A stretch of 64,000 bases of DNA, from NCBI GenBank assembly GCA_008632985.1, contig QPGO01000031.1:248001-312000 (forward strand). Direction: 5' to 3'. Source of the DNA: Psammoneis japonica. Lineage: Eukaryota. The notes under the pieces were generated by a model. That model saw only the letters and a list, made by a program, of their open reading frames with translations. It made no database searches and was not told where the DNA came from. Position 1 is the stretch's first letter; the number at the start of each line of letters is the position of its first letter. Shown in pieces: positions 2,642-61,207 of this stretch. Both the position numbers and the translations under genes were made by a program.

Positions 2642-2801
2642 GGGTGGTATGAAAGAATCAAGATACATAATAAAATTCTAACGGTATGGGTGGTATCTGA
2701 TTGTCTACGTTTCTAGAAATTCACGAAACGAGCTTTTAAGTAGCAAAGTACATCGATTACGTGTACCCACTACTTCGCAAAATCGAACACTTTCTCAATA
2801 A

Positions 2802-26179: not shown

Positions 26180-26790
26180 GACTCCACACCACCCATGCTG
26201 GCCTTGTTCAATCTTTTGAGTGTGAAAGTGTCACAATCAAACTCTGCCAACGTCAAAGTGTGGTCAGGGGGAACTCCAACCCTTTGTGCCATTGCTTGGT
26301 CTGTGTGAATCTGATCACAAGGATGAGCTTGTCCTTCAAACCTGTGCAGTGCACAATGGTTCCTGCCTGCTGCAAGATGGCAAATGGGTGTCTTTTGCTT
26401 TCTGCTGGATGCTGGCGCAAACAAGTCAACATCATCTCTTTGTCTTTGCGAGAGTGTGTCACATGTCAGCACAGTTGAGTCATCAAGTCACACGAGTTTT
26501 GCTTGCATTTTCACACCATGAGCAATGGCTGTCATTTGTGTGAGCACTGCTTTTGATGCCAAGAATGTCGTCCAGAGGATCGTGGCACAGCTTCCAGCCC
26601 GGCTGCCACATGCTGCTGTGCAACAGAGGAGCCTTTTAGAGCTTGCATTTTTTGTGGAAACAGCTCAATTCCCAGCACACTGCTCAATGCCTGACACATT
26701 CTCATTTTTCAATGGGAGCTGACAGGCATGCTGACAGGAGGAGCAAATTTTGTCCAGGAGAGCTCTGTCAGTGCTGGCTTTAAGGTGGTG
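26180..26790. other. TpA-depleted hypermutated domain 3
   Basis: About 600 bp with only ttag/ttaa left. It ends a few bases inside the MITE left arm. Confidence 0.8.
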
Positions 26791-27278
26791 CGGGTACAAA
26801 AGTGGGCCAGATTCTACGCACGTAGAGCTTAGTATGTTTTCTACACAAATCGCCAAAGTCGGCTCGCCAACTTGAACCCTCTCCAGGACGATGGAAACTT
26901 GGACATTTCACATAACAAAGTGTTTCGACTACTTAATTACACTCTCCTCGACTTGTTTAGGGAGAGAAGTTACAAGTTTTCATAGGTTTCTGAGGATATA
27001 TATAACGAATCTAATCAGAAAGGTGCCGAAATCGCGACGTTCGAGTTTTAAAGAGAAATACAAAACGAGAAACCCATGGAAACTACTTGTAACTTCTCTT
27101 CATAAACAAGTCGAGGGAAGTGTAATTAAGTAGTCCAAACACTTTGTTAAATGAAATGTCCAAGTTTCCATCGTCCTGGAGAGGGTTCAAGTTGGCGAGC
27201 CGACTTTGGCGATTTGTGTAGAAAACATACTAGGCTCTACGTGCGTAGAATCTGGCCCACTTTTGTACCCGTACCACC
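26784..27278. mobile_element. MITE (non-autonomous DNA transposon), about 495 bp, long inverted arms, flanked by TTAA
   Basis: 26784-26910 is the reverse complement of 27152-27278 with 2 mismatches. Imperfect pairing continues to about 26991/27068. TTAA at 26780-26783 and 27279-27282. Termini GGTGG...CCACC. Confidence 0.92.
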
Positions 27279-27526
27279 TTAACAAGGGGAACACAGTCTT
27301 GAAGCTTGGGCTGACGGACAGACGAAATAGAAATGCGGACGTCGTCAGTCCCGCCTACGATTAGTCCCGAATGCCAAAACTGCACAGACGCGAGATTCGA
27401 GATTCGAGATTCGAGATTTGCATTCCGATCGCACCATGACCGTCACCGTGACAGCTCTCGAAGCGTCGGAAATTCAGCGCAACACCACAGCCGCATTTCT
27501 TTGATTTCTTAAATCGAAATCCAGGC

Positions 27527-39479: not shown

Positions 39480-40800
39480 GAGGAGGGGAGAAGCGAAGAT
39501 CGGCAGCAACAACAAGCGGTTGGCGAGTGCGACAAAAAGACGAAAAATCGAAAAAATCAAAATCAAAATGACCGGAAAAAGCGCGGGAAGACCTTTTGAC
39601 GGACGTCGGACGGTCAGTCAGTGCCATTCGCGCGCGGCGCGCACAAAAAATGTTCGTGGCATCAGAGTCAGGTTTGCCAAATGCATGGTGAGGGGTGGGA
39701 GTCGACCTCATCTTGAGTGGGCGCGAATCATGGAAAATTTTAGTGAGTGGAGGAGAGTGCATCGGAAGGGTGTGCAGAAGATGTGGGGGTGCGTGGGAGG
39801 GGCCACATCACAATGTCACAAGAATTTGGCAAATGGCGGGTGTCATGACTCAGAGATGACATCAAGGGGGCTCAGGTCATCAGGGGAGCACGCAAGCGAA
39901 GAAAGAGGAAGTTTGAATTTTTGTCACATTTTGCAAAAAATGAGAAGTCACAAGGAGTGTATTTTTGTGAGCGAGATCTGGCTCGAAACACGTGTGTGCC
40001 TTGCTTGCACACGAGCATGCCACCCAACATGATGAGAGCTTTCGGGATGATCGCACTGAGAGCCTGCCACAAGCCAGAGGTGGGGTGCAACAAAAAATGA
40101 CAATGAGGAAGCCCGGATTGTGCTTTTCCCTTTTTGCATGTGGCAAGACCTGCAAACTCTGCTGCAATTCACATGCTCCAGCCCTTGGCCAGTTTCTTGG
40201 CCTTGTGTCCGGACTCACCCGGGGATTGTCAACAGCCACCACACATGATCCATTCCCAAACCTTCCACCCAAATTGCGTTGTGGCCTTCCCCTTCTGTCA
40301 GAAAGACACATTTGGCCTTGGTTGGCAAGTTGAGATCTGTCACCATCACTTTCAAAAAGTTCTTTGGCTGACACCACAAGCGCGCTTCTCCTCAGCAACG
40401 TGCTCACCAGAGCATCTCTCGTCACCCCATTTGCTCATGAGACAACAAGTGACAGGGGAAGAGCCCATCTGACTGCTGATGGGAGAGGAGGAGCCACCAC
40501 TCAGGAATCTGTGCAGCAGACCAACGGAGACTTCATTGTCAAGACAGCTGGTGATCACAATTGTTGCGATGCAATGGTTGCTTCATTCTTGGCATTTCGT
40601 GACAAGGTCTGACAAACAAATGATTCAAAAAGTGAGCTGGCCAGCAGCTGGATGGAGGGATGAGTGAGAGGAGTTTCACTGGCAGTTGCATCTTGCCTGC
40701 GTCACCCACCATTGTGTGGTGGGTGGCCTTCCTTCGCGGTCCCCGTTGACTCTCTTCTCCCCAAACACCACCAGCTGGCACTGTGGGCAGTGCTGGCAAG
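39480..40800. other. TpA-depleted hypermutated domain 4, directly upstream of UGGT
   Basis: Essentially TA-free (exceptions ttag at 39740 and gtat at 39960). The left edge is CpG-rich. Confidence 0.75.
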
Positions 40801-42173: not shown

Positions 42174-42599
42174 TTCTGGCTTCTGGCTGTTCAATGAGAT
42201 AAGGTGAAGGGTGAAGGAGGGGGCAGGAGAGAGAGTGGGAAGAGTCGTCAATAGGTCCCGCAATGTCAAACTCGCGAACAACAGCAAGCCTCAGGTACCA
42301 AGCACACTCTAAAAGAGTACCGGTAGAGTCGTCTATCTAAGCACTTCAAGCGGGAAGATTTCTTCTGACGGCCGACAGACAACACTGTAAACACAGCAGT
42401 TTGGCAGTTCGCGAGTTTACCACTGTATCAGTTCTTGAGTTCTTGACAGTTCGGCACACCTAGTCAAATGACATTCGATTGTTCTCTAATTAAAGGACTT
42501 GCCCTAGCTAGGAGTGCTCTCCTTGGCTTCAGATGCAACAAATTGCCACCAAACAATGCTTTCTAACAGCTTCAGAAAACTTGCAGGTTGCCTGACATT

Positions 42600-43774
42600 T
42601 TAGTTCTTCTTGTTTTGGTTGTCCTCCTCTCTTTGAGTTTGTTCATCGAGAATTTCCTTTAGCAACTCTGCCGTGGGAAGCAAACTTTTCACTCGGCTCG
42701 AAACAAACGGCATTTTGTCTGGCTCCTGACCAGCCAGGGAGCTCGCACCTGCACACACAATGGCAGACAAGGACGCAAAGAACAAGATGTTGCTGGCATT
42801 TGCCACGACATCCACGGGCATCTGCTGACCCATCAACTGTGAGGCTCCGGAGACGAGCAGCGAAATGACACCGGGAATAAAGAGAGCAATGTCGAGGTAA
42901 ATGGCTTGGAGCATGTTGAATCGAACAAGCCGGTTGATGCGGGGAGAACACCCGACAAGAAAGTCAGTGACAAGGCGGCAATGAACCCACTCAGCGGAAT
43001 GGAGCGGCACACAAAATACGTCGCCACAATCAATTGTGTGATTGGATTGTTTGGATTGTTCAACACCAGAAAACTGGCGCAGGGAAGTGCACCAAGGAGA
43101 GGAAACATGCAGGGCAGCACTGACAAAACCTTGTCCAAGTTGGTGGGAGGCTTGTGTTCAAAATGTCAGCAATCTTGTTGCATGCTTCCTGTTCCCATTT
43201 AGCATTCGCTTGCAGTTCAAGGGATTGCTTCTTTTCCTCATGGGCAAATTCTGCCAGCACCGTCTTGAACCGTTCAACTCCGACAAATTCTTCCAATTGC
43301 AACTTGCCGTCACCAGATGCGTCAAATTTTTGCATCAATTGTTCAACGCGATCCTGGGGCAAGTCGGTCTTGAGTTGCCATTCGAGTCCGGCCTTGAGTT
43401 CCAATGGGGAAATTTTCCCGTCATTGTCGTGATCAAACTCAGCAAACACCCGTTCGGCCGCTTCCGCAGCCTCCTGGGAACGTTCTGCCTCCAGCGCGGC
43501 AGCTTCGGCGCGGCATTTGGCAGCCATGGCGCGGAGGCGCTCCACATCCACGTCGCCAGCGTTTTTCTCCGCACCACTTGGATTCTTGTTGATGCCATCT
43601 TGGACCATTTCTTGGGTGGTGTCTTTGCCTCCTAAAGCCCACAGTCGAGTTGATGGTTGGTTGGTGTACGAAATTGTTGGCAATTTCGCGTTTGAAAGAG
43701 GCTTGGGCGCGGCAAAGGCACTTGTCGAAACAAGCTGAGAGGTTGCAAAGAGAAAGAGAACAAGATTGCTTCAT
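42600..43774 (-). pseudogene. EF-hand plus Tic20-like plastid import protein, frameshifted, with Tyr->Cys changes
   Basis: Presequence ...VSTSA-FAAP, EF hands (DHDNDGKISPLE, DASGDGKLQLEE) and Tic20-like DKVLSVLPCMFPL...INRLVRFNMLQAIYLDIALF...GQEPDKMPFVS. At least 2-3 frame breaks. Confidence 0.85.
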
Positions 43775-44619
43775 CTAAAGAGCATTGTGTTGACCTGGGT
43801 GAAAAATCAAAAATTGTGAAAGGATTTTGAATCTTCGAGAACAGACGCTTTTTTCTGAAGAGTTCGAAAGAAATCTTGAGATTGTCCGCAGAGCCAGCGC
43901 TCTGCTGCCTGCTGACATGGATGCAAACACACCCATTCTTGCTTGTTGCATGTTTGTGGCTTCTGGACTTGCGCATGCATGGGGCGGGGCAGGCAGGATT
44001 CTTTGAACGAAGAGTTCGAAAGAACTTGCTGACGTGGATGCGAGTGCTTTCCTGCACGTCTGGATTTGTCTCTCGCAACATGGGAAACATCTGTGATTTG
44101 TGTGCAGAAAAGGCCTTCTTCATGGACAGGAGGCTGGAGAGCATCGCATTTGGCACAAAGCAAAACTTTTGTGTGCTGCATTTCTGTGCACATGAAGTTT
44201 CACATCTGACAACACTGAGGTGACAGTTGCACACCCCAGCTCGCTCAAATCCACAGAGGCCAGCGGCACTTTCGTGACAATGTGGCATGTGCCAGCATTG
44301 CCAGCACTTTCCCACCACAGCCACATCACATCACTTTTTCTTAAAGTGGCAATGTGCTGGATGAGCTTTGATGGAAAATGCAAGAAAATAGAGAGTGGCC
44401 TGACTGGCTTGATCTGCACAGGAGTTTTGTTCTCTGCTTGCGCTTGAGGTGCGCCACGGCAGCTCGAAAACAACATCAACAACAATGGCAATGTTGGCAC
44501 TGGGAAAACTTGGGTGCAAAGCAGCCACATTGATGGCATTTCCAGAGCTCTGCTGCTTGTGACAGAAAAAATGTGTTGAAGCACACATGAGGCAGAGCTG
44601 AGAGTGTGGCGGCTGCAGG

Positions 44620-45230
44620 ATGATGGCGGCGCACTGGTGGCTGGCTGGAGCTGCCCAGTGAAAACTTGTTCTGGTGGCTTTGTTTCTGTGAGTGTGAGAG
44701 TGGCCTGTGCCATGCAGTTAAAACACCCATGGTGCATGGCAGTTGGAGCCTTTTTGCCACTGGTGCTCATGGTGTTTTTGGAGCCTTGTTGCTGCACCTG
44801 AGATTGCAGCAGTTGGAGCGCTGGTGCTGCTGCTGCCAGCAGTGATGGGGTTGGAGCCTTTGTGCTGCTGATCCTTGCACTGGCAGCAGTTCTCAATGCC
44901 TTTGTGCTGCCAGCACCAATGGCAGTTGAAGCTTTTTTGCTGGTGGTGGTGGGGTGTTGGAGGTGGTGGTGGCGGTGGTGGCAGCTGGAGCCTTTGCACT
45001 GCTGGCACCAGTGCTGGTGGCAGCAATCAGCAACTCTTTGCACCACTCTGGAGCTGGTGGTGGTTGGAGCCTTTGTGCTGCTGGAAAGCTGGTGTGTGGT
45101 GGCTGGAACCTCTTTGCAATGCAGGTGGCATCAGAGCCTTTGTGCTGCTTGCGCACTTGTGGCAGTTGGAGCCTTCTTTCTTAAGCTGTTGATCAGTTGG
45201 AGCCCCCATGCTGCTGGTGCGGGCACTGGC
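44620..45230 (-). repeat. Degenerate tandem repeat encoding (S/T)STKAPT(A/T)-type mucin-like units
   Basis: Many copies of g(c/g)(a/t)g(t/c)tggagcctttgtgctgctgg on the + strand. The minus strand reads STKAPT-like units. Confidence 0.65.
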
Positions 45231-46504
45231 ACAATGTGATGTGCTCAAGGACCCTGATGGTGCCTGAGTGAATCAGAACTTGCATCTTAACCACCACAGC
45301 CACCTTGTCATTTTAGAGCTCTTCTCAAGTTGTTCAAAAAAGTCAACAAACTCACTTGACTTGTGAAACCAGAGAGCTGGGCGCACAACAGTTCCCTGTT
45401 CTTTGTTGTCATGATGATGAAGTGTGCAAACAGTGATTTTGAACAAGCTGCTTGCCACTTGGTTGCTGCCACAATCAACTTGCCTTAACATTGCTGACTT
45501 TGACAGAAAAAATGCACAAGCAAAGTTGTCTCTCTCATCTGTGATGCAGCCACTCAAGGCTTGAGAATCTTCAAAACCAGAGAGGCAAGTCACCTGCTTC
45601 TGCTGACTTTTTGGAAAACCTTGCCATTGTTTTTCAAACCTCAAGTGTGCTGAATTCTTTGGCTGTCTTTTTGACAATCATCTCACTGAGACTCTCAAGC
45701 CAAAGAAGTTTGACAGCTTGACAACTGCCCATGCCAGTGCTGCCTCTGCAATGATCTCTTCACTTCTCTCTTTTGGTTAAAGACTGAATGTTGTTTGCCA
45801 TTGTCAAGTGATGAGAGTGGTCTGGCATGATCCCAAGAAACATGTCACCTCCTCTTTTGTTGCCAGCATGACTTGCATGTTTCAATTGTGGTGGCCCTCA
45901 TTCCATGACCAAAGGTGTGCCAAGCATGTTGTCAAAGAGGCTCTTGTGTGCACAATGACAGAACAACAACAAACAGCAATTGCAGCGTCAGCACTGAGGA
46001 CCACATTTGCCATCATTCACAAGACCCCACAAGCACTGGCATGCTGTGGCCAAAGCAGCTGGTGGTGCTCAAATTGCTCAAGCTCTTTCACCTGCCTCAG
46101 CTCTTGCACCAGCTTCAACTAAAATTTCTGAGCACAAACTTGGACTTTTGCTGCTTTCAACCTGGGCTCCAAGCTCACATTGTGAGGCATGCCATCACAC
46201 ACATGAGCATCACTTGGAGACTGCTGCCATGTCAAGCACAACAGCCCATGAAGACATCCACCTCAATCCTTTCTTCACACAAGAACTTGGTGTTGTGAGT
46301 GTTGTGTGCCAGTGCTGGACCTCACTTCCATTGCTTGCTGAACTAGATTGTCACAAGAAATGGCACTTGAAACAATGCAGATGGAACTCAGCAAATCAAG
46401 ATGTTGAGCCAAACCTCCAAAACCCCAGAAGATTGGGCTTTTGCTTGCATTGATGCCAAACAAAGAAAAGAAAAAGAGGTGTGTGTGGCCCAATCAAGCA
46501 TTGG

Positions 46505-46768
46505 TTGCTGCACCCACACACCTTCAGGGATGTGTGACATGTTGCATGGCATGCCTTGGACAACTTTGTCAATTCTCTTGATCTGCTTTAGAGACCATTT
46601 TTGTTCTGGTGGGAGAAGTGAGTTCATCACCATTTTTTGTTGCTGCACCTGCACACCCTCAGAGATTTGTGACATGTTGCACCACATGTCTTGGATAATT
46701 TTGTCCATTCTGTTGATCCACTTTAGAGACAATTCTTGTTCCAATGAAAAAAGTGAGTTCATCACCAC
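46505..46768. repeat. 135-bp tandem duplication (45-codon repeat on the minus strand)
   Basis: ttgctgcacc...aagtgagttcatcacca at about 46505-46633 and 46640-46768. Confidence 0.85.
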
Positions 46769-49009
46769 TGGGTTTGCTCCTGATGATTCCATGGCATGTG
46801 TGAGCACAAGGAACTTGATCACAAATCAACCCTGGATGATGTGTGACACACAGTTTGAAACTCTTTTTTAGACAAAATTGTGAAATGCATCATCAATGTG
46901 CTTGGTCATCTGAGGTGCTGCATGCTTGTGACAAGAAACACCCACACTTTCCGCGCACACTGGTTTCCAAATGGTCTGACTGCAGCCATTGTTTCAAGTC
47001 ATTGTGGAAGAGCTGCTGCTGTGTCAAGAGCTGCTGCCATTCATGCATTTGTGCCAGAGGATCCATTGTGGCTTCTTGCTGGTGTGCCACCAAAGCTGAC
47101 AAAGACATCAGATGACCTTCAACATCTTGAAAGCAAACAATGTCAAGCACTTTCATCCAGTTGCCAATTGATGTGCCTGTGGCAATCAGCACTGGTGCCT
47201 CATCCTTGCTTGCTCCAGCACATTGCAGTGACTTTGCTGGTCCTCTGGAACCTGCTGAATTGACCATGACAACTGTCATTGGCTCATCACAGATGAAACA
47301 TGTTTGTTGGTGCATTTCATGCACCAACAAGGTTGTGTGCCAGAGTGAGATTTCATTGCCTGGTGCTTGCTGGAAGAACACCATCTGTTCCATCCAAACC
47401 AAGGCTGTGCACCTGGTGGTTCTGTTTGCCTGTTCAGCCATCTGCAGGCCCATTTTGATGACAATGACAGCCAGATGGCACCAAGTGCTTGGCATGTGGC
47501 AACAAAGCCACCCCTGCTCTCAACTGAAAATGCACTTAAGTTTCCACATAAAAAAGCAACTTGCTGCTCATGTCACATTTGTGCCAAAGCTTGTTTGCAC
47601 TGCAAAATGCCTTGGTGTGTCCCCTTCTTGTTTGTCACTTCTCAGACCAGTCAAAACCTTGCACCAGGTCAGAAGAAGAAGGTTTTGCTGCTTTGTCAGA
47701 AGCTTGGGCACACCAATTTTCAACACACATCTGTTGGCTCTGTCACACATGCCTTGAGATCCCACCAAGTCTTGTTTCCTCTCAAACCCCAAACAGCAGC
47801 TGTGGTTGGTTGCACAGCATGCCTTTGAGCGCTGCACAATGACTTTTTAAGACAAGGTGCTGTTCTCCCAGCTGTTGCAGCAGTTCTAAACTGCTGCCAC
47901 CAACCACAGACAGAGATTTGGCATGCCCAGTCAGTGTGCCTCAGTTGGTCAGTGCATCATCAGCCACATCCCCAGCCATCTTTTGCCAACAAGCAAGGGA
48001 CAAAAACTCAAGAAGAAAGAGAGCAGTGGCAGCACAATTTTTGTTGGCCATGCTTCCAACTGTGTGTTCCTGACCTGTCAAGAGTTGGTCTCACCACAGA
48101 AAAAGCCAATTGTGCTGGGCACACTTTTGAGCAACAACTCAGTGACTGGCTTGGCATGTGCTGTGTGAGTCAAGACATGTCAAGTTGACAAAATGCCCCT
48201 TTTTCTGAAGCTTTTGTGCAAAATCAAGAAGACAAAAGACTTCTTTGGTGTTGGTGCCCATCACCCAAATGGCACTGCAAAGCAAGCAACTTAAAGTGTC
48301 ACTTCCTGCTGAGCACAAGTCAGTGTGCCAGCACTGCACACTGTCCTCATGCAGCCAAGACTGTGCAAATTTGGGAATGCCCCTTTTTTGTGACCTGTGC
48401 AGTCCATCTTTGGAGTCACCCACCAAAAGCTTCAAACCATGGCAGTCAAGATCTTTTCACAGCTGTGCACACCTCTGTGCAGCACCCGCACACATGGGAT
48501 CAACCTGCCTGTGTTTTGGCAGATCCCAAACTGCACCACAACAGGAGAAACCCAACAAACAGGATTCCAAGAAAGCTGCTGTGGCAAGCAAGTGGCTGCC
48601 CTGGCATGCCCCTCTCTCATTCCACCACTGTTGGTCTTGTTCCAAATTTGGCAGGTTCCACATGGCTGGTCCATGACAGCCATTTCACAGCAGCAGCCAC
48701 TCAACAGCAAATCTGATGTTTTTAAAACATTTCAAAAACAGACACCTTTTCTGCCAACATTTGGGAAATTCTGTCAGCCACTGATTCAGCAGCAAAAACC
48801 ATGCTCTTGACTCCCAGCCCTCTAAAGACCCATGCTGCTGCTGTCCTTGGATGATGCCCAAAGAATGCTGCCACACCACACAATGACCCCCCACACCAGG
48901 GGGGGCATCCACAGCACCACCACCTGCAGCACACGACCATCACCAGGAATGATGCCTGGGTCACCTCTTCTGCCACAGCTTCTGCACCAATTCTGTTTGT
49001 TCCTTTGAG

Positions 49010-49025
49010 TGAGACAGAGAGAGAG

Positions 49026-49061
<36 letters not shown>
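49010..49061. repeat. Compound (GA)n(CAG)n microsatellite
   Basis: Read directly from the sequence. Confidence 0.9.
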
Positions 49062-49062
<1 letters not shown>

Positions 49063-51211
49063 AAATCCAAAATGCTCTGTTGAGTTAGAGAAGCACACTG
49101 TGATCAGGCAACGGTCATTTGTTCTCATTGCATTGCAGCAGGAAAGCATTGCTGAAGCACTCAGATCAAAGAACTCATGCACAACCAGCATGAATGTCTT
49201 CCACAAACATGCAAAGTGAAAACACAGCACACTCAAAGAGGTGCACTGACTGGCCTTTGCAGTTCCTGGAGCCAGTTCTGCAAAGTCAATCCAACCTGGC
49301 AGGAAAGTGCAATCAGAGTGGCCCTGTTTGCTTGGCACATGCCAAGCCTGTCACATCGAAAAATGTCCCCTTCCTTGTCAATGGCAAAGATGCTCAGGAG
49401 GAAGCAGGCTTTTTAATGTTGGATGAGTGGTGCGTGCTTCCCGCTTGCTTGTGCATCTCCAAGTGCAACCCGCACCTTGCGTGCTGCACCAAATTCTGGC
49501 ACTTTTCACAAAGCAAGCTCAATCACATCACTGCTTTTTTGAATCCTCCCATTGACAAGGAGGATCCCAAATGGGGTGCAGGGATGCCCAAAGAGAGGAG
49601 CACAAATGCTCTCTGGTGCACATTCACAATGCTGTGAGGAGCTGCTCTAAACCTGCCAAAGAGCCAAAAACTCATGAAGACTGTGTGTGGTCTCAAAGAA
49701 GAACCCAACAGTTTTTTGTCCACCTGAAGTCAAAGTCAGAAGAGGATGCTGAAATCCACTCTCAAGAAGACGATGCTGGTCTGTGCCTCTTTGTCTGGTG
49801 ACAAAGTGGTCTGCTTGGTGCACATCAATGAGAAACACACTTTTTTGGCCAGGGAAGGGTGCATCAAAAAGGAGGTGATCAAAAAACTCAAATTGACAAA
49901 GGTTTGTCATTTGCTGAAGCAAATGATTCTGTTGCAGGTTTTTTGGGCACTGCACATTGAGGTTTTGCAACACCAATGGTGCAATCATGCTGCGCCAGAG
50001 CAGTCTGGCTGATTGTGCTGTGCAGATGCTTTCAAGGCAGGCAACTTGTCAAAGGTGGCCTGAACATCTGCACAAGCTGCTCTTTTGGTCAAAGATGAAA
50101 AGGGAGATCCCCCTTGATTAAAGCCTTCAACAACGTCAATGTGTTTTTGGCACATGTGATGTGTTCTGGGATCTCCAAGGTCACACCTCCTCTCCAGGCC
50201 CAAGCATGTCACCTGTGCAGTCAGCTCAGGAGCAGCCAGAGTTGTGCACAGTCTGCTTCAGTCAACACCTCAAGGGTGCCCTCAATGAAGGTTTGATCCT
50301 CTTAAAGACATCAGGAGAGACTTCAATGTGTGTTTGTGTTTTCTTCTTGAGCTCAAATGTTGCTGGATTGTGGCTGGTTTAAGACAAGCAAGACCTGACC
50401 TGTGTAAAAAGCCATGCAGGGTTTGAAATCTGCACTTTAAACTGTCCTGTCATTTGTTCAAGCAAGCTTGCACCTGACACAGCCTTGTCCACCATGATGG
50501 AAGCACAGAGTGCAGTGTGCTTGTGCACCACTCTCATTTCCGCTTGTTGCATGAAAGCTGCTCTCCCCCTTCACAAAAAACACACAAGCCATTTTGCAAG
50601 GTGTTTGAATTGGTCTGGGTGTCCCTGAGGCCATCAAAACCATGGCATGGGATGACAATGTTGGATCTTTGTCCCTGGCCAACGTGGGACCTGGTCAAAT
50701 CACGATGGGGTCATCCAAGCACTTAGAACATCAAGCACCACAAGATTTGTGTTGTTCGCTGCTGAAACCAAATGGAGTTGTTGCATCTAAGATTACAACA
50801 GACATGCAGTGCACCATCATTTTCACCGAGGGACTCGGGATTGTCAAGTTCGAGTCCATTCGCAAGTTGCTTTGCGGCATTGCTGGCTTCTTCGTTCGAG
50901 AGGCAGTGTCGCAACAACATCACGCCATTACCAGCATGCGTTTGAAGTTTCGCGCCTTCGCACTTGAAGCCTTCTTTTGCGCTTCTGCTCTCTATCTCAT
51001 CACCTAGCATGTAATCAACATTAGCAGCAACTACAAGTGTCTATCAACACTGTCTATTGTCACTGACTCTATTGTTAGTGATGCTGTTTCGTATATTCGA
51101 CCGACAGTCGAATCTCATCGCTCTCAGCCGACAGTCATCGCAACAGGTGGCCGCTTTAAAACATTTCATATCGTTTCTGGCTGATAGTTGTGGCATGAAC
51201 GAACGAAACAT

Positions 51212-52156
51212 TCACATTTGATCCTCCACCTTTGCTCCTTCCTCCTCCAGCCGCATATACTTCTCTCGAAACGCCTCCCAGGCTGGAAATTGTACTCGTT
51301 TCCGCACCCGCTCTCGTCTTCTCTTTGCGTAATACTCGTCAATCTTGCTGTACATCATCGGAACAACCACAGTGAATGCCACAACTGAGACAACATGCTC
51401 AGCCAACCAATTGCCCACTACCATGAGTGGTCCAAGCCAAGGAAGATTTCGCATATCATGTCCCACCAAAATGACATTAACAGTTTTTTGCAACAGCTGA
51501 ATAAGTCGACTTGTCAAGAACGGTACCAAGGATACCAGTACAGCCCAATAGATAAAGACACGACTGGTAATGCGGGTACAAGAGAGAATGGCAATATCCT
51601 CAAACTCTTCTATTCCAATTCTCCCTTTTGTCTTCGAGGTTGCTATGTCAAAGAGCTCGTCGACCTGCGTGCGATTAAGTGGTTGGCAGGCCGCAATTCC
51701 AATGTACTTTGCCAAATGCAGATGAACGAGAAGGATCCCAGTGTACAAGTCTTTGCGTGATATTTGCCCGTTCTGATCGGTGTCGCACTTGGAAAAGGCC
51801 CATTGGATCAATCCACGAAAGGCTTTACTGTTGGTCCATCGTCGTCGCTTCCTACGCGAAAAAATCAATGAACTCCGTTTCGGCTGAGTATCATTGTTCT
51901 TCAAGCCGTGTTCAATCACTGGTCGGAGCATATGATACAAGCGAACCATACGTGACAACTTATTGACGCCTGTTTCCACCGTCTCTGGTTCGACCTTTTC
52001 AGAAGGCTCGTTGGAAAGAAAGATTGCCGGTGGACTACTTGCTCCAAAACAGGCTCTGGGAGCCGAAAAGGATGAAACTCTCGGCGCGAGAGACGCTGCC
52101 ATTCCGATGCAACAAGCCATCCGCATCACCCACAGCATACCCAGATGATGCTTCAT
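51212..52156 (-). CDS. EF-hand-containing membrane protein with N-terminal signal/transit-like peptide
   Basis: AFSKCDTDQNGQISRKDLY EF loop, a second degenerate loop and C-terminal TM helices. Confidence 0.75.
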   Translation of the reverse strand: MKHHLGMLWVMRMACCIGMAASLAPRVSSFSAPRACFGASSPPAIFLSNEPSEKVEPETVETGVNKLSRMVRLYHMLRPVIEHGLKNNDTQPKRSSLIFSRRKRRRWTNSKAFRGLIQWAFSKCDTDQNGQISRKDLYTGILLVHLHLAKYIGIAACQPLNRTQVDELFDIATSKTKGRIGIEEFEDIAILSCTRITSRVFIYWAVLVSLVPFLTSRLIQLLQKTVNVILVGHDMRNLPWLGPLMVVGNWLAEHVVSVVAFTVVVPMMYSKIDEYYAKRRRERVRKRVQFPAWEAFREKYMRLEEEGAKVEDQM

Positions 52157-52798
52157 GCTGGACCATCACTGGGCATCCAACAGTGTGGACGGTGCTCCCG
52201 CAGGCGGCGGTCGGCGGTGGGCGAAATTTCAGGACGGGTTGGCGCGCATCAGCAGTTATGAGGCTACGACTAGCACAATGTGCAAAATAGACTATTACAA
52301 ACTGAATACTTTGTATTTAAATATATAGTAAATGTCTGAATGATTGGTATGTAAAATGACTGCACATGACTCCTGCTGTAGAATTTGTACCAGTCTACGT
52401 ATTTATTGCTCTACAAACTGAAGCCCTATAGAAATGTCTGGTGTTAAGTAAATTCAAATGTCGGAGCCGCCAAAATGGACCGAAACGCCGGCCACGTCTT
52501 TTAATAAAACATGCGATCTTGGTTATTGATTATGAAGCAGTCGGAGTTGAAACAGTAATATCAAAATTAATTTGAGTCTTAATTTGAATAGGAAACATTT
52601 AAAAAATCTTCTAATTGTGTTACAAATATCGATTTTTGACTACAAATTGTATGGGTTACATCTGTAAAAATGCCCTAATTATTTGCTAAAAGCCGTTATC
52701 GTTAAATATCGATGTACAAAAAATGCGATACGGGTGTTCAGGACGTTTTTTACAGTTCACATTGTGCTAGTCGTAACTCCATAGCCCCACTCCCAGCG

Positions 52799-53437
52799 CG
52801 AACCATGCAGTGGTTCGCCGCGCGAAATCACGGATGCGCGCGACTGTTGCCCCGAACCATCACGTGGTTCGCTGCACGCCAAAAACGACCCGATACACAA
52901 TGGTTAAAAAGGTAGAAGGTAAAGAGACATCTATAATAACTTTGCATCAGTCGATACAGCAAAGTCTATTTGACAATATGTATGCTTTATTTTAGTGGTT
53001 TACTACGTTCTTAAAAGTCTCCGTACTACTGCCGTCTTGTTCATCGTCGAACCACATTTTTCTGGTGAATTTTGGCATTTGACCCGCTGGTACAAATTAC
53101 ACGTAGATTTCTACGCACGTCCTCCCGAACCACATCATGGTTCGACAATTCTACGGGGTTCTTGGTACTTATCTACGCAGCGAACCATTGAGTGGTTCGA
53201 TAATATCTTCTGGTACTGTTCTACGGTGGTTTCTACGGGGTGATAAAATCACCGCCAACGACCATGACGGTGATTTGACGGCGACCGTGCTTCATACACG
53301 AGTGGTTGCTGACAACATAATGCATTGGTAACGATGGCTTTTTGACTCTATTAAAAGGTTATATATGTGTAGGTACTACTTTATCGTGTCAGTCGCGAGT
53401 TTCACGTTGCGCAAGTTGCGAACCACTGAGTGGTTCG
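52799..53437. repeat. Five copies of the palindrome CGAACCA-N5-TGGTTCG
   Basis: Starts at 52799, 52853, 53126, 53181 and 53419. Arms are identical and the 5-nt spacers vary. Confidence 0.9.
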
Positions 53438-54035
53438 ACATTTTGCCCGAGTGGGGCCAGCAATCCGGCATCGATCGCACCGAGTCGGTCCTCTCCGTTG
53501 TGTGTTGTGTGAGCCAATCAGAGATGATGGTCATCCGTCGGCGCTTTTTCAATGACATTCTCATGGTTGTGACAACCTCACCCAGAGGTTTCTGGTTGGT
53601 CCACTGTGACCATGGTGGCTTTTTGCCATTGTCCACACTGCAGATCTTCAGTGAAGGTGCACTGGACAGCTCGGGTTCAAAGTCCCCACTTGTTTCCCTT
53701 CTCTGCAGCTTCTTGTGAGGGCCTGAGGGCCTGCTTGTCATGGTGCCAGCATGGCTGTCAACACATGACAACATGCATTGGACCAGTGTCATTGCCCTGG
53801 CTGTGCTCAGCCAGTTGTGTTGCTGTCCTCAATGCCTTGTGTGTGTGAGAGAGAGAGGTCTCTTGAAAAAAAAAAAAAAAACCACGATGTCATTGTCAGG
53901 CACAACAGACAATGGCCAAACTCTTCAGTGTGGAGAGACAAAGCTGCACAGCACATCTGAGAACAGAGGCAAGAGTGCAGTGGGTGGCAAGCTCATTTTT
54001 GTTGCAAGAAACACACAAAGCCCAAGGAGGTGCAA

Positions 54036-54280
54036 TGACAGAAAATGAAGATGACTGGGTGGAAGAAAACAACAACTCCTTGCTGCTGTCTAAACAGCAG
54101 ATGAGTCTCCGTGCAGAGACCATTGCAGGAGCCGAAAGACTGGTGTCGTGATGTCGGTGCTGCTGTTGTTGTTCTTGGGAGCCGAGTGGCTTGAAAGCAA
54201 ACTGCATCGCGTGACGCGCACGGAACCAAGAGCACACACAATTGTGTGTGACAAACTAAAATCTTGTTCAAATCCTGTCA
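54036..54280 (-). repeat. 3' LTR
   Basis: Direct repeat of 58577-58821, preceded on the minus strand by a purine tract at 54281-54286. Confidence 0.95.
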
Positions 54281-54282
54281 CT

Positions 54283-57200
54283 CCCCAGTTTGCTTGAGGG
54301 GTCAACAGTGACAGATTCAAAGTCAGATTGGTTGAAAGCCTTGGGATCGAAGCTCCAAAACATTAGAGGATGAAGGAGGTTCCAGATTTGGGAGTGACCC
54401 CAATGCTTGCTGAGGATGTCAGCCGGGTTGAGGGAGCCTTCGACAAAATGAAACTCAAGGAAACCGGAGGCAATCGCCTCATGCACATGATGGAATGAGA
54501 GGGTGGTGTGTCGCTTGTGTGACTTGGAGTGTGGGATGGCAGCACTGTCCACAACCGACTTGTTGTTTTCCAGGAAGATCATCATTCGCAGGCCACGGAG
54601 AGACACTGCTCCGGAATGGACACTGTCGACGGGCACGTCTGTGAGGTGTCCATTGGCAACAAGCCTTGCTTTGTGCCGTCCGTCATGTTTGACGTCACAG
54701 ATGAGATGCACCTGGATCTTCTTGTGTCCTGATGGAGCGCTGGAATCGTTGTGGTGTCCGCAGTCGTGGAAGACCTCGCACTCATCAAGCTGAGTCATCT
54801 CGAGGTCCGTTGCATCTCCCCACTTGCGGTTGCCATTGCGCTCATCAAGGGCCATGGCATGCCTGCAGTCCCGCAGCACTTCATGCTCGCACTTGCATCA
54901 TGGCGCAGTGCAAAAGGAGTGACTTGTCTTGGTTGGCCATGCGGAGCAGCCTCTTCTGACAAAGGGCCATCTTGCAAAAGCGTCTCCATCCTTTGGTTTC
55001 TAGAAGGCCGTGCTCACACGGGCAGACAGCACAGGTGACGGGGTCATCCTTGGCAATGATGGCAAGGGGTTCGGATGCAATCTCCCCACTCTCCCATTCA
55101 AGCATGACGTTGTAGCTATCATGGGGTTGCAATGGTCCTTCGTGCGATGCGATGCATCGGAACTTCCAAAGGGTGGTGTCCTCATCTTCTTGCTCAATGT
55201 GGTGCATGATGTCATTGTAGGCTGGGACTTCAGAAGAAGCCATCTTGCAAAAGCATCTCCATCCTTTGGTTTCTAGAAGGCCGTGCTCACGGGCACAGAC
55301 AGCACAGGTGACGGGGTCATCCTTGGCAATGATGGCAAGGGGTTCGGACGTGATCTCCCCATTCTCCCATTCGAGCATGACGTTGCAGCTTGAGTCTTTC
55401 CAAGAGGGATCATGGGGTCACAATGGTCCTTCGTGGAACTTCCAGAGGGTGGTGTCCTCGTCTTCTTGCTTGATGTGGTGCATGATGTCATTGTGGGCCA
55501 GGACTTCCTCGTGTTCGTCATTGTTGATGGAGCAAATGAACTTGGCCAGTTCAGGATTGTCTCCGATTTTCCAGTTGTGGTCCTCAACGACTTTGACAAT
55601 GCGGGCTCTGTGGCGTTGTCCATCCTCTTGTGGCTTCATGAGGAAGGTGCATCCTGTGACATCCTCAGGGTCAAAGACCGGCATTTTGGGCATCCTGATC
55701 GCCTCCCCATCTGGTGAATCTGGCAAATCCTTGGAGTCGTGGCGGGATTTAATGACAGGTTCAGCAGATTTCTTGACAGGAGGATCAAGATGCAGGTTTG
55801 GAGCAGACGGATCATGGGCGGAGCGCACGTTGGAATGGCAGAGAATCTTCTGAGTGTCGTCAGAAAGAATCTTGAACGTCATTTGGTGACCAACGTGCTT
55901 GGCGATGTGCGGGAGGCTGGCTTTGATGTCAATGGGAATGACGCATCCATCAACAGTGGTGACATGCTGTGGACCGTCAGGGACCTTGATGGACCGATCG
56001 TTGACATTGTGTTTGTGCCACTCGAGCTGGCCGCAAGAGTGCATCGTCTTCCCCTTTTCAGTGTGGGCGCACTGGTGAAGGATGGCAATGGCAGGGCCGC
56101 GTTGCGTGTGGATGACACCACCGGCAGTGACAATGGGAATGTCTGCCAGTTGATGATCATCAACACCTTGGACGTCAATGTCATTGGGCTTCGCGTCGGA
56201 GCGGACGGAAGGTGCAGATCCAGGTGGTTTCTCGCCAGAATGGGCAGAAGGAGGCCGTTCAGGTGCCAGGAGACATTGCAAGTCGCCGGGTGGCAGGGGC
56301 TTGTGCCTGGTGAGATGAGCCAGAATGGGGTTGGTGTCGGCTGCATCGGCTGCAGCATCGGATTGTGCGAAGGCTGATGCAAGATCGTGAGTGTTGGCGG
56401 ACAAGTTGACATCGCCATTGCTGCCAATGCGGAGGTCGTGCAGGTTGACCACCGTCAAGTCATGGCAGTTGCTGGTGTGGGCAGTGCGCGAGCCAAGAAT
56501 GATGACCTTGGTGGACTGGGGCAAGGTGTCCCAAATTCGCTGATGGTCCGGCCGGAATGTGACGCCATTGTTCCTTGGTGAGGGAATTGCCACGAGTTTG
56601 CACAGCATGAGCTTGGATGACGTCAACATCACTGTCAATGTCAAAGAATGCATTGTCATCAGGGTCGTCAGGGACCAGGTCATGTTCGTAGATGGCACGG
56701 TGCGGAGCGCGAGGAGCCGTCTTGGACTGTGCTGCAGCAGAAAGCAGAAGTCCACAGTGCTCTTCACAAGAGAGCCCCTTTCCATTCTGCGTGCGGAGCT
56801 GATCAGCTTGATTCTTTACCAAATGGAGTTCTTCGACAGGATGAATGGCGTTCTCAAGCATGACATGTTTCTGGCCAGCAGAGAAATGGCCCGCACCCGG
56901 GACAAGAGCTTCACACTTGCGGAGCTGGTCCTGCCAGTGAAGTGTGAAGGCATGGGTGGATCCCTTCCAGGTGCCATCACCAAGGCGAGCAGTGGTGAGG
57001 TGCGTGAGAAGGGTCGAGGACTCCAGGGATGCGTGAGTGGAAGTGAGGGCACACTTGGAAAGGTCGCGATGCACCGCTTGAGCATCAGAGGAGCTGACAT
57101 GTTGACAAACAAGCGCCTTGCCTTTGTCATTCTGCAAGATCCGTTCAAATGCAGCGAACATGCACTTCTGTTGTTCATCAAACAGGGCCTTGTCCTCAGC

Positions 57201-57764
57201 TGTGGAGGGCTTGTGCTTCGGATCAAGAATGAGTTCGACGTCCTGGGAGCGGGCCTGTGCAATGATGGAGGTGTGCCACGTGTGCCACTGTTTGTCTGAC
57301 TTGAGAGTCACGAAGGTGAGTGGGTCACGTTTGATGCCTCGTTTTAAGTCACATGCAGGGTCACATGGTTTGGGTGGCAAAGAGCCAGGGGTGGGAGCAG
57401 ATGGCGCTGCACCCATGGAGAGGGATGCTGCATGCTCAGGACTAAGACGACAGTCAGTGAACTCCTCGTGAGTGAACAATTGAGGGTTGTTGCTGACATC
57501 CACGCTGCCGCGCGCTTTTGCCGTGCACAGGCCAATCAGCGCAGCCATCTGTGCTTTGTAACCACGTGACAAGGGCATCTGATTGGTGCCATTGTTGCAC
57601 ACAAGGGCATCCAGTTGCGTTGGAGTAAAAGCAAAAAGGTCCTGACAAGAATCGGTTCCATCAATGTTGAGAGCGGAGTGCAATGGACTGTCTGTGGCTT
57701 GATTCAGAACAGTGCCTAGAACATGCTTGAGTCCATTGATTTGTTGTTGCCTGGTGAGAACCAT
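54283..57764 (-). pseudogene. Decayed gag-pol of the copia element
   Basis: Gag ORF 57764-56460, a partial protease region (IPIVTAGGVIHTQRGPAIAILHQ), the post-integrase region, and the RT N-terminus fused to the RNase H C-terminus. Frameshifts are present. Confidence 0.9.
54966..55507. repeat. Internal ~270-bp tandem duplication in pol
   Basis: 54966-55231 versus 55239-55507 (both encode NDIMHHI...EWE.GEI.SEPLAIIAKDDPVTCAVC). Confidence 0.9.
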
Positions 57765-58576
57765 GTTGCAACTGGGTGGATGTCGGAACTGGCTGGAGTC
57801 GGAGGGTGAGCTTGAAACAACTTGAAACTTGACTTGAGTCTTGACTTGATGTCTTGAACTATCTCAAGAGTCAGAAGCCACCGGGCTGTGATGTCCCATT
57901 CACAGTCAAGTGCCAAGCTTCCCATCTGGTCCACAGAGTTGTGCTGGCATGTCCAAACCCGCAGCTGGTGATGCTTTGGGTTGCCTGAGAGCAGAGTGAT
58001 GGGTTAAAAACCCCTGCTGACAAGCCAACCAGAGGTGGACAAGACCTCCGAACCATTCTTGTTTTATGTCAGTTGGATGACCTGATCAGGCCGGCCAAAT
58101 TTGGCACTGTGGAGGGATGAACAAATGTGGGAAATGCACCCTCGCCCCAATGCAGGCTGTGATCATGAACTGCTTCCTCTCACAGTTGTCCTCGTGGACC
58201 TTGTAGAACTGCTGAGGACCAGCAATCTGGTGCAGGCTACAAGGCGGCAGACTTGGCATGTGCAGAGCAGGGCCAGAGTCAGGGTTTACATTGTGTGCTT
58301 GTGGATGCAAGCGGATGGATTGGCAGGATCCACTGCAAGGAATCTGGAATCTTGGATGTCTGAGAATTTGGGAATTCCTGGCCAAACAAACATCCGTTGA
58401 ACAAACACATCCAATGATGGGAGTTGTTGGACAAATCCAAATGTGTGGATTTAATCCAGCATCCAGCAGTGAAGAAGGCAGACACATGCTTCCACCGCCA
58501 ACGGTGCGCATCGTTGAAAATTTCTCGATGATGATGATGAACGCTCAACGGACAACAAAGAGCAAGACTGTCAATC

Positions 58577-58821
58577 TGACAGAAAATGAAGATGACTGGG
58601 TGGAAGAAAACAATGACTCCTTGCTGCTGTCTAAATGGCAGATGAGTCTCCGTGCAGAGACCGTCACAGGAGCCGAAAGACTGGTGTTGTGACATCGGCA
58701 CTGCTGTTGTCATTCTTGTGAGCCGAGTGGCTCGAAAGCAAACTACATCGCGTGACGTGCATGGAACCAAGAGCACACACAATCATGTGTGATGAACTAA
58801 AATCTTGTTCAAATCCTGTCA
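58577..58821 (-). repeat. 5' LTR
   Basis: Direct repeat of 54036-54280, same length (245 bp). Confidence 0.95.
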
Positions 58822-61207
58822 TGCAAACACAGTTTCTTTTTTGCACACAAGCTCGCCAGCTGTTGCAGCCAAAGCGCATGCTTGTTGTGATTCATTGCAA
58901 CAACAGGTGCCAAGCTCAACCTGGAAGCCATGGCACTTGCTGTGCACAAAGCACTGACAAGCAAGTGAAAGCTCCGCTAATTTCAAGCATTGCCGCCAGT
59001 GACAACAGTGCACATTCTTGCAACAAAAATGCACAGACCGGGTTCCACAACTTTTGCAAAAAGTGTTTGATCTTGCAAGCAAACACAACTGTCCTTTGAT
59101 GTTGCCATTTTTGTCAGACAAAATGGCTTTCAAGCTGAAAAAAAGATTGACATGAAGCTTTTGCTGACCAAACATCCACACCATGAAGTGCTCATGAACA
59201 ACCACATGTTTTTTTGGCAGAATCACATCAAGCCTGTCTCTTGGAGGTGGAGGTTAAAGAGATGCCTTGAAAGGCATGGCATCATGGCTTTCCTCAGGAC
59301 CATGGCATTGCTGGACTTTGCTCTTCATGACACTCCATGTGAGAGCATTTTTTCACAATTAAAGAGAGCTGTGTTCAAGCCTTGGCAGCCAAAGTGGTTG
59401 AGGCAACATCAAAGCAAATCTGGCACACTTGTGAGTTTGACATTTTGTTCAAATCAACCTTCTGGCATTCCCACTCAAAGCAGCCACTGTTCACAAGCTC
59501 AAACGGAGCCAAAGCCAGCAGCAATCTGATTTGAAGTGCAGCATGCATCATGGCCAAAAATTTGTGCCAACACCACAGTGTTGATTTTGCAGAGTGCAAT
59601 CACAAATTTTTATTTTCCTGTGATGAGAAATGGCTTTTGTTCACACCAGCTAACACAAGATTTGCTCTGCATTGGCTCATCCCAGGGAATTGTTTTTGTT
59701 GAGTTTTTTGTCATTTGCACAGTCAGTGCCTTGGCATGTGACACATGGGCTCTTCCAACTCACCCTCATTTTGTGACCACCAAGCTGGAGACTGTGTTAA
59801 AACCAAAGCATGACAGCAGCCTTTGTTGTTTTTGTTGTTGGTGCAGTGACTTCTCTTGTCCAGCCACCGGCCACCACCTGTGCTGCTTGTTTTTGTCATG
59901 TTTTCCATGAGGGGGCTGTGCTTTGTGCAGCAACTCATGAAGCTTTTGAAGAGTTTGAGTGGTTGATGACACAGACCAGTAAATTGCTCATCACCGTTGC
60001 AGAGTGCAATGATTCAGAGAGCTTCAAGAAGGATGAAGGCTGCAAAAAGAGCTCTGTTCCCTTGGTGGAGTGTTGCACTTGCCTCTCTAAACAACTGTTG
60101 TCATTTGCCTCTCCCCTCCAGAGCACCAATTTTGTTGCTGGCACAATGCCAAGAAAACCCACCTGGTGCCAGAGTTAATCTTGGGGGCACATTAGATGCT
60201 GACTTTGTTGCATCCAAATTGACAGGTGCAGCAATTGCCCACATGGACTCTCCCAACAGCACAGTCATCTGCAACAAACCTGGGCAGTTTGCTGCTTCTG
60301 TTCAACAATCAATTTGTGTGGAAGTTTTCTGCAGAACAAGATGTGATTCACTGGTGTGTGCAGGCCTTGGAAGAAGTCTTTATGCTTGCTCTGTGAGGTG
60401 TGGCATTGATGTGAAACAAAAATGTGACAGCAAGAGTGGGCCAGCATTGTGTGCCCATTTTGATGTGATGCCCAGTCCCTTGATTTTGAGGCAAAGATTG
60501 ACACCCAAAGACCAACGATGCACCAAATGCTGCATGTGTGGCAGTTGCAAGTGGAACAACAAGGAACTGTTGCAAGTGCAACAAAGCTCTTGCAGTCCAC
60601 AAGAAGACATGGCCAAAGATCCATTGCAACACAATGCTGTTCAGTTTGAGCATGTGGAATGTGTTGCTGCGAGAGTTTGTGTTGCAGAAACTCACATCTC
60701 ATCTTGGGTGAAGAGGAGGCAAAGTTCATTTGGAAAGGCTTCTGTGGCATTTGTTCTGGCAAGAGGCAAGGGCCCCACGTTAACTTGGTGCTGTGTTTTC
60801 TAGCACCACCTGTTTCTGCTTTACGGTTTCGGTGCGGGGTCTCTTACGAGTCCTGAAGGCGAGGGCGTGCGATGCACAGGATGAGGCTGCGAAAACGAAA
60901 AGGTCGATACGATTGTCGCGAAATTGAAGAAACGTCAACAGATGCGAGTTGATCGAGCCAAGGTCAGAATGGCTGAGAGCACGCTGGAATCATTAAAAGC
61001 GCTTCACCAAAAGGCTGACATGATTGTGGAGCATCTGCAACTTGAAACTCCCGACTCTTCCACATTGGAGCATTAGCACCCATCATTTTGCGAGGTTTAT
61101 CTGAGTTTTCATATGGTAGTCAGCTTACTCTTATGCCAGTCGAGAGCCCCGGCATGCATGCCTGTTTTTGCAGTTATCATAGCGCATTTCATAATCTGCA
61201 TGGTATA

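Follow-up and report, generated by a model that had tools for sequence, protein, structure and literature searches.

Sequence evidence for regional TpA hypermutation in six bounded domains of a contig of the diatom Psammoneis japonica

The closest system described so far is that of the chlorarachniophyte Bigelowiella natans, in whose mutation-accumulation lines 231 of the 302 nuclear single-nucleotide mutations fell within a region of integrated nucleocytoplasmic large DNA virus (NCLDV) and virophage DNA (Mettrop et al., 10.64898/2026.01.13.699255). According to the text of this preprint, all but one of the 231 mutations were A to G or T to C changes, all of these were at TpA, and their rate was roughly 1000-fold that of the background, although the hypermutation was seen in only some of the lines. 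A homologue of ADAT2 is proposed there as the agent, which means that an adenine deaminase is suspected and not demonstrated, and the same text describes clusters poor in TpA and rich in CpA and TpG, in which unannotated genes and domains of reverse transcriptases and transposases are overrepresented (10.64898/2026.01.13.699255). Here we report on a stretch of 64,000 nucleotides of the diatom Psammoneis japonica (assembly GCA_008632985.1, contig QPGO01000031.1, positions 248,001 to 312,000), from here on called the window, in which six domains, one of them holding a long terminal repeat (LTR) retrotransposon, have lost nearly all their TpA. We consider it very probable that the loss reflects genuine regional TpA hypermutation of the Bigelowiella natans kind. 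The original prediction for this DNA, made from the sequence alone, knew of no described system with such a signature; this novelty cannot stand, since the 2026 preprint, in its main text, shows the same one.

The domains, named A to F (Table 1), were taken at the coordinates of that prediction and pooled (20,491 bp), and the remaining 43,509 bp of the window were used as the outside. Inside there are 95 TA, which is an observed/expected (o/e) ratio of 0.07, with values from 0.026 to 0.10 in the single domains, against 0.59 outside. At the outside density 829 TA would be expected (Poisson log10 P = -231). CG is also scarce inside (434, o/e 0.34, against 0.95 outside), and TG and CA reach 1.71 and 1.75, against 1.16 and 1.19. 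The remaining 12 dinucleotides are nearly alike inside and outside (for instance AA 1.24/1.12, AT 0.81/0.94 and GC 1.21/1.02). Actually, AA and TT are not depleted at all (1.24/1.19 inside, 1.12/1.15 outside), and the big shifts are confined to the four pyrimidine-purine dinucleotides, with a G+C content of 0.497 inside and 0.477 outside. The edges are sharp, given that the TA-free gaps, the longest of 939 bp, start or stop at most about 100 bp from the borders in Table 1. The six bounded domains almost without TpA and with an excess of TG and CA were thus confirmed, as was the content predicted for them, namely a retrotransposon (54036-58821), remnants of gene copies (803-1202 and 42603-43770) and DNA of no recognisable kind (44401-50720).

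Ordinary decay of CpG to TpG and CpA does not account for this composition. After subtracting the share that is due to CpG loss, the gain of TG and CA amounts to 752, compared with 734 lost TA sites; these lost sites are also needed in the balance, therefore CpG decay covers the CpG share only. The two losses can be separated along the sequence as well. The stretch 39501-40000 has a TA ratio of 0.07 but a CG ratio of 1.07; within the young element of domain F the CG ratios are 0.5-0.75 and the TA ratio is about 0.05, whereas the old flanks of domain F are depleted of both dinucleotides. In the 500-bp profile of the 64-kb window we did not see any strongly CpG-poor stretch with normal TA. In these islands, TA loss is separable from ordinary CpG decay and also faster than it. 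The argument that neither repeat-induced point mutation (RIP) nor deamination of 5-methylcytosine (5mC) is able to remove TpA was upheld.

Regarding the direction of the change, it is polarised by four sequence comparisons, which involve the two LTRs of the element in domain F, its gag-like open reading frame (ORF), an ARF-like gene pair and a Tic20-like gene. In all four the changes read as A to G or T to C at TpA giving TpG or CpA, and together they indicate that TA becomes TG or CA in place, after integration or duplication.

The element belongs to the Ty1/copia type, judging from its direct LTRs bounded by TG and CA, its target-site duplication of 5 bp, its gag and a remnant of the RVT_2 type. 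As this target-site duplication is intact, the two LTRs are sisters and their differences arose after integration. We counted 15 difference events between them: 8 adjacent swaps between TG and CA, one change between TA and TG, 5 between CG and TG or CA, and one transversion, with no other A:T transitions. Hence the check proposed beforehand, whether A to G at TpA exceeds other A:T transitions, gives 8 double swaps and one single change against none. A swap between TG and CA requires a TA or a CG as ancestor, and CpG decay predicts only 0.45 double swaps in this pair (7 CG conserved, 5 half-changed), therefore about 8 swaps are derived from TA. Both TA that are conserved across the sister LTRs lie in CTAAA. 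In a tandem repeat that lies outside the domains and served as a control, the 96 substitution events included 52 transversions and 3 swaps. The LTR pair of this one element gives a rate at TA sites 124-589 times that of other substitutions, and 29-136 times for CpG, so that the rate at TA appears to be orders of magnitude above the background.

Of the 53 homologues of the gag-like ORF, 32 were aligned with it. In 10 columns at least 60% of the 32 have Tyr, and there the window has Cys in 4, His in 4, Phe in one and Tyr in one. A single transition in a TAY codon can produce either Cys (TGY) or His (CAY). By contrast, 21 of 23 Leu columns and 9 of 9 Gln columns are conserved. The Tyr content of the ORF is 0.4%, versus 2.3-5.4% in the aligned homologues.

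The intact ARF-like parent gene (2225-2628) retains its 10 TA and 9 CG and is located only 1.4 kb from its mutated copy in domain A. Not one of these sites is kept in the copy, where the TA read TG in 6 cases, CA in one and something else in 3, and the CG read TG in 5, CA in one and something else in 3. The parent's TG are kept at 15 of 19 sites and its CA at 15 of 16.

The fourth comparison is the gene remnant at the start of domain E, whose architecture of an EF-hand followed by a Tic20-like part is common to four full-length homologues (367-399 aa). Tyr is shared by three or all of the four at 8 columns, and at these the window has Cys in 3, His in one and Tyr in one, the other 3 being poorly aligned, and its ORFs contain 13 Cys versus 0-1 in the homologues. 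The fifth codon of the signal-peptide frame is a TGA, the first Tic20 segment is strongly diverged, and in the assembly a frameshift near 43155 separates the EF-hand ORF from the Tic20-like ORF. At position 43155 a contig built from reads has one additional C, which would change the frame and may stem either from an allelic difference or from a homopolymer miscounted in the assembly. We also asked whether two ORFs with an EF-hand (43063-43770 and 51215-52165) are paralogues, and they are not.

A further check was whether other copies of the element are equally free of TA. We confirmed 138 metagenome stretches as encoding gag relatives and analysed the best 80 of them; one of the three search patterns demanded Tyr or Phe and was biased against mutated copies. 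The TA ratio of these 80 loci ranges from 0.27 to 1.13, with a median of about 0.64, and many copia-type loci among them (e.g. L039, L022 and L014) have CpG ratios of 0.03-0.2 while TA is normal, at 0.5-0.7. Therefore, the poverty in TA is not a trait of the family, and CpG decay alone is insufficient to cause the loss of TA. Methylation-type decay of this element family is widespread and independent of TA loss. In the 26 reference proteins Tyr is kept at 67-100% of the consensus columns. Among 23 displayed sites of the element where the reads differ from the window, the window has TG or CA against a family majority of CG at 13 and of TA at 3, and 7 are of other kinds. One metagenome locus, L044, resembles the window: between 1251 and 2426 its TA ratio is 0.08-0.24, and at the Tyr columns it has Cys in 6 cases, His in 2 and Tyr in none. 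This locus and L003, described below, suggest that TA-free domains occur in other diatom or related genomes too.

The few TA that survive are not a random sample. With Y for pyrimidine and R for purine, 66 of the 95 inside the domains are in a YTAR context, versus 321 of 1762 (18%) outside (odds ratio 10.2, p = 7e-26). This excess points the same way in six of six domains. The inside/outside ratio is 0.01 for RTAY, 0.06 for RTAR/YTAY and 0.44 for YTAR (0.66 for TTAA). Back-mutation from the abundant TG and CA would yield only about 23% of YTAR according to the class counts, so the surviving TA are spared sites and not new ones. This exemption of YTAR suggests an enzyme-like specificity. A strand motif deduced from the context of the products (TAC > TAG > TAT > TAA; NTGY > NTGR) was dropped, the flanks being mutated themselves and genic DNA having served as the proxy of the ancestor; the outcomes at Tyr codons (Cys 5, His 5) do not discriminate it, and the excess of NTGY was not reproduced in the product classes of loci L003 and L044. 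Of 10 segments in which they were counted, 9 have about as many TG as CA. The exception is the element, with 542 TG versus 415 CA on the plus strand, that is, 542 CA versus 415 TG on its sense (minus) strand. From these counts the process can be seen to act on both strands.

The term RIP-like, in the sense of repeat-induced, did not survive the analysis. The mutated ARF-like copy lies beside an unmutated parent, domain E is single-copy, and a palindrome with long arms is normal in TA. This palindrome (26780-27282), at the right border of domain C, has arms of about 250 bp that are 93% identical over 215 aligned columns, and it is not hypermutated (TA 0.86, CG 1.08). The 1.3-kb AT-rich stretch between domains E and F, with a summed read depth of about 15-fold, is TA-normal too. 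The process is not repeat-induced in the RIP sense. On the other hand, TA loss is co-located with CpG decay, which points to targeting by the state of chromatin or methylation. Diatom transposable elements are CpG-methylated via DNMT5a (PMC9998398). We infer from their CpG decay that the islands may be cytosine-methylated or heterochromatic, and the six domains, which are non-genic, are probably silenced; they contain a copia-type element, two dead gene copies and older DNA beyond recognition. They are intergenic, with transposon and pseudogene content, and the genes next to them are spared.

Taking all this together, the predicted mutator, one that acts on either strand and makes TpG or CpA out of TpA in bounded non-genic islands beside ordinary CpG decay, is supported. 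The best overall explanation, and in our opinion a rather probable one, is a chromatin-targeted DNA mutator that converts nearly every TA in silent islands, with an adenine deaminase as the favoured agent. In such a mechanism, the silent or cytosine-methylated state of the chromatin would recruit the mutator to the islands; the adenine of TpA, on either strand, would be deaminated to hypoxanthine, which would pair with C, and replication would fix a G. One would expect an adenine deaminase that acts on DNA and is either related to ADAT2/TadA or one of those specific to stramenopiles, and the effect would be the irreversible inactivation of mobile and duplicated DNA through changes such as Tyr to Cys or His and Ile to Met or Thr. 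That the agent is indeed a DNA-acting adenine deaminase recruited by chromatin is a tentative proposal, to which we give slightly less than an even chance. Stramenopile-restricted proteins in which the deaminase is fused to SAM and Tudor domains have been listed, as have LmjF36.5940-like deaminases (PMC3239186); both are possible enzymes, as candidates only.

Among the other explanations, the one that survives best, although we consider it unlikely, puts the target on the thymine: a TET/JBP-like dioxygenase or another enzyme would mark the T of TA, for example as 5-hydroxymethyluracil (5hmU), and mispairing or misrepair would then lead to T to C. TpA is self-complementary like CpG, which would suit a symmetric DNA mark, modified thymine is known in some protists, and the data on LTRs, contexts and survivors fit T to C in TA equally well. 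Nevertheless, 5hmU pairs mainly with A, so that a nearly complete conversion would demand a very strong bias. Moreover, we found no evidence for thymine modification in diatoms, and the only ORF of the window resembling a 2OG oxygenase is a sub-threshold Pfam match of a different family. The ORF in question (13876-15873, 666 aa) matches PF13759 (2OG-Fe(II) oxygenase) with E = 8e-4 and is probably unrelated.

Error-prone patch synthesis by a pol-eta-like polymerase during repair of heterochromatin, misinserting opposite the T of TA, is a good deal less probable still. It could be regional if it were tied to methylation, and the CpG decay does mark the domains as chemically distinct. However, the WA-motif signature of such polymerases targets A in both TA and AA and has a mixed spectrum that includes transversions, whereas here AA and TT are undepleted and the LTR pair shows one transversion and no other transitions versus at least 9 events at TA sites. 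Furthermore, the near-saturation seen in the RTAY context and the sparing of YTAR resemble the recognition of a substrate.

There might also be no mutator at all, either because the pattern is an artefact of sequencing or polishing or because this DNA was always poor in TA, through selection against UpA or avoidance of TA. The reads were checked with Logan contigs (k=31) of a run of the same sample, possibly the assembly's own source, which is no biological replicate and leaves this explanation some room, as does a TA-poor relative with conserved Tyr that we describe below. One read-built contig of 7,982 bp spans 41500-49002 at a depth of 66.5, like that of its flanks, with 6 substitutions and one indel relative to the assembly, and others match 49072-52286 and 58796-61400 with 0 differences. 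Of the 201 differences between reads and assembly, 40 were listed (6 in domain E, 23 in the element and 11 set aside in the intergenic 52415-52863). All 6 substitutions of the long contig fall inside domain E and each is between CpG and TpG or CpA; that all are at CpG is due to TA being nearly exhausted there, and this fits an ongoing hypermutability of CpG in the domain. Contigs made of k-mers require accurate reads, therefore an artefact of modified bases or of polishing is excluded, and an error of long-read base calling is unlikely. The worry that independent reads would show TA intact was not borne out, since the same-sample contigs reproduce the TA-free sequence at single-copy depth. Besides, miscalled modified bases would not consistently turn up as TG in the one LTR but as CA in its sister, the homologues and the parent gene have TA or Tyr exactly where the domains read TG or CA, Cys or His, and the related loci are TA-normal. 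We therefore regard the absence of a mutator as very improbable.

The least probable explanation of all is A-to-I hyper-editing of retrotransposon transcripts by an ADAR- or ADAT-like enzyme, fixed by reverse transcription, for although the 5' U preference of ADAR is noted in the preprint text (10.64898/2026.01.13.699255) and the best-studied target here is a retrotransposon, the TA-derived differences between sister LTRs within an intact TGCAA duplication are later than integration, gene remnants and single-copy DNA other than retroelements are equally affected, both strands are changed, and the surplus of CA on the element's sense strand is the opposite of what editing of sense RNA would leave.

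Several points weigh against a chromatin-targeted adenine deaminase, and they should be considered together. Metagenome locus L003 is poor in TA over 2.8 kb (751-3516, ratio 0.04-0.2), with a normal left flank and with surviving TA mostly in YTAY on the coding strand, yet Tyr is kept at 8 of its 12 consensus columns. It could be a case of partial mutation under selection or of adaptation by avoidance of TA, and it indicates that an element can be poor in TA while its ORF stays conserved, through selection or adaptation instead of pure decay. The majority of the family keeps TA at 3 of the 23 displayed sites, and part of the element's poverty in TA could have been inherited from a TA-poor master copy, although it is also at these 3 listed sites, with the TA-normal median of the 80 loci, that the other copies prove not to be equally TA-free. 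The estimate based on product contexts is confounded, ATAT being wholly lost yet the expected gain of ATGT absent. A to G on one strand and T to C on the other look the same in the sequence, the methylation and chromatin state of the islands is read from CpG decay, and no deaminase gene was found in the 64-kb window. Most of domain E is single-copy DNA of no assigned kind, so that its being foreign or repeated is not established. Finally, everything is deduced from one assembly and contigs of the same sample, with no mutation caught in the act.

Table 1. Coordinates in the window of the TA-depleted domains and of the features that they contain.
Feature	Coordinates	Strand	Remarks
TA-depleted domain A	305..1660		3 TA, o/e 0.035; contains decayed copy of neighbouring ARF-like gene
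Hypermutated ARF-like duplicate fragments	803..1202 (803-965, 1109-1202)	+	parent gene 2225-2628
TA-depleted domain B	5160..6750		10 TA, o/e 0.10, CG 0.23; intergenic, content unassigned
TA-depleted domain C	26180..26790		2 TA, o/e 0.051; intergenic; adjoins TA-normal palindrome
TA-depleted domain D	39480..40800		2 TA, o/e 0.026; upstream of UGGT gene; CpG mildly down, 0.57
TA-depleted domain E	42510..50720		39 TA, o/e 0.072, CG 0.22; single-copy by read depth
EF-hand and Tic20-like gene remnant	42603..43785	-	opens domain E
Most decayed part of domain E, unassigned	44401..50720		27 TA and 30 CG in 6.3 kb
TA-depleted domain F	53420..60820		39 TA, o/e 0.087; younger LTR element within old CpG-poor single-copy background
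Internally deleted Ty1/copia-type LTR retrotransposon	54036..58821	-	complete insertion, high-copy family
3' LTR	54036..54280	-	245 bp, TG..CA, terminal inverted repeat TGACAG/CTGTCA
5' LTR	58577..58821	-	245 bp, 90.6% identity to sister LTR
Target-site duplication TGCAA, left copy	54031..54035		
Target-site duplication TGCAA, right copy	58822..58826		
gag-like ORF	56460..57863	-	53 homologues
Reverse-transcriptase region remnant	54268..54918	-	own RVT_2 match E = 0.065

With regard to the retrotransposon itself, its remnant of the reverse-transcriptase region was recognised through a relative: 54571-54918 matches residues 1364-1477 of a polyprotein of 1,782 aa with 62% identity, and this polyprotein has RVT_2 at residues 1421-1634 (E = 4.8e-32). 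Neither an integrase nor a protease was found in the element, and most of pol is gone, hence we describe it as an internally deleted copia-type element. Over the element the read depth sums to 6,700-58,000, versus about 66 for single-copy DNA (about 100-880 times), so the family is abundant. Its flanks are single-copy and far more CpG-poor (at 58822-60820 there are only 11 CG in 2 kb), therefore the element landed in an older island. When 228 ORFs of the 80 related loci were compared with the window by tblastn, the matches were solely at 54251-57755, which means that there are no other copies of the family in the remaining domains. To the left of domain F, five palindromic motifs GAACCA-(5-6 bases)-TGGTTC occur within 52800-53436, where 0.05 are expected by chance; they lie in AT-rich intergenic DNA that is TA-normal and has a summed read depth about 15 times the single-copy value, and the last copy stands exactly at the left border of the domain. 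Tandem duplications inside the domains, at 54966-55507 and 46501-46767 (81-82% identical), show 4 and 3 double swaps between TG and CA respectively.

The content of the other domains is much harder to recognise. Pfam searches with the 145 domain ORFs of at least 75 aa gave only the EF-hand, a sub-threshold TIC20 and two matches at chance level; they revealed no viral genes, and no ORF of this length in 44401-50720 had any match. The longest ORF of domain E had 0 matches among 1.84 billion representatives. Between 42000 and 61500, ORFs of 150-467 aa overlap one another in the domains across several frames and both strands, and most of them are spurious. Long spurious ORFs arise in all frames because the domains are devoid of TAA and TAG stops, and gene prediction is thereby distorted. 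Rfam and tRNA scans of the 64-kb window gave no match. The genes of the window are eukaryotic with few introns, and they include 6PF2K, Arv1, a bestrophin-like gene, GTP cyclohydrolase I and UGGT. The best matches of the GTP cyclohydrolase I ORF have 76% identity, and the named ones among the 120 listed belong to the raphid pennate diatoms Cylindrotheca, Nitzschia, Pseudo-nitzschia and Mayamaea; on this ground the analysis took the window for nuclear DNA from this group.

The same signature in a diatom would mean that TpA hypermutation is not the curiosity of a single species, and that it strikes retrotransposons and dead gene copies as well as integrated viruses. It is possible, though we would not count on it, that diatoms possess a chromatin-guided DNA base editor, perhaps a deaminase-SAM-Tudor protein, Tudor being a reader of methyl marks, which deaminates the adenine of TpA in silent or methylated DNA and in this way permanently erases transposons, pseudogenes and maybe integrated viruses. 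If this were true, then together with Bigelowiella natans TpA hypermutation would be an ancient defence across the stramenopile-alveolate-rhizarian group, an A:T to G:C mirror of RIP, and its agent would be a natural adenine editor working in a double-strand context. A natural converter of A:T to G:C in chromatin is relevant to how base editing arises in nature. The sparing of Y-TA-R is a flanking-base rule that any candidate enzyme would have to reproduce, and the connection with cytosine-methylated islands could then be tested in a group for which genetic tools are available.

In comparison with the known systems, the islands share with ADAR and APOBEC editing of animal retroelements the deaminase-type transitions that cripple retroelements and, for A-to-I, the preference for a 5' T/U. 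Those enzymes, however, act on RNA or on intermediates before integration and in a strand-specific manner, whereas here the changes are later than integration, on both strands and also in DNA that is not a retroelement. Deamination of 5mC would account for the CpG half of the pattern, as seen in the CG ratio of the pooled domains, in 5 of the 15 LTR events and in 13 of the 23 listed differences from the family majority that are at CpG; but part of domain D is without TA while its CpG is intact, and the CpG-poor relatives keep their TA. The resemblance to fungal RIP consists of the irreversible inactivation of transposons and duplicated genes, the bounded regions, the restriction to transitions and the dinucleotide context. 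Nevertheless, RIP changes C:G to T:A and so gives rise to new TpA, while in the islands TpA disappears and G+C goes up, and RIP mutates both copies, whereas here the ARF-like parent is untouched, single-copy DNA is affected and a nearby palindrome is spared.

The closest likeness is to Bigelowiella natans, where, as the preprint text has it, TA also becomes TG or CA on either strand in confined regions at about 100-1000 times the background. The preprint is so far the sole report of TpA-specific hypermutation. We found no report of it in diatoms in our literature searches, and the text of the preprint does not mention diatoms. Judged against that text, there are also clear differences. The host is a diatom, a stramenopile, and not a rhizarian; the targets are an LTR retrotransposon and remnants of host genes, with no viral genes found, instead of viral DNA; the domains are near saturation at a TA ratio of 0.07, compared with 0.45 in the NCLDV region; and CpG decay accompanies TA loss in the same domains. 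In the main text of the preprint, the part that was searched, we found no flanking-base rule like the exemption of YTAR. In Bigelowiella natans the mutations were observed in real time, whereas here they are read from the sequence. What the diatom locus adds to that system is a set of retrotransposon and pseudogene targets, near-saturation, a rate based on LTRs and the exemption of YTAR.

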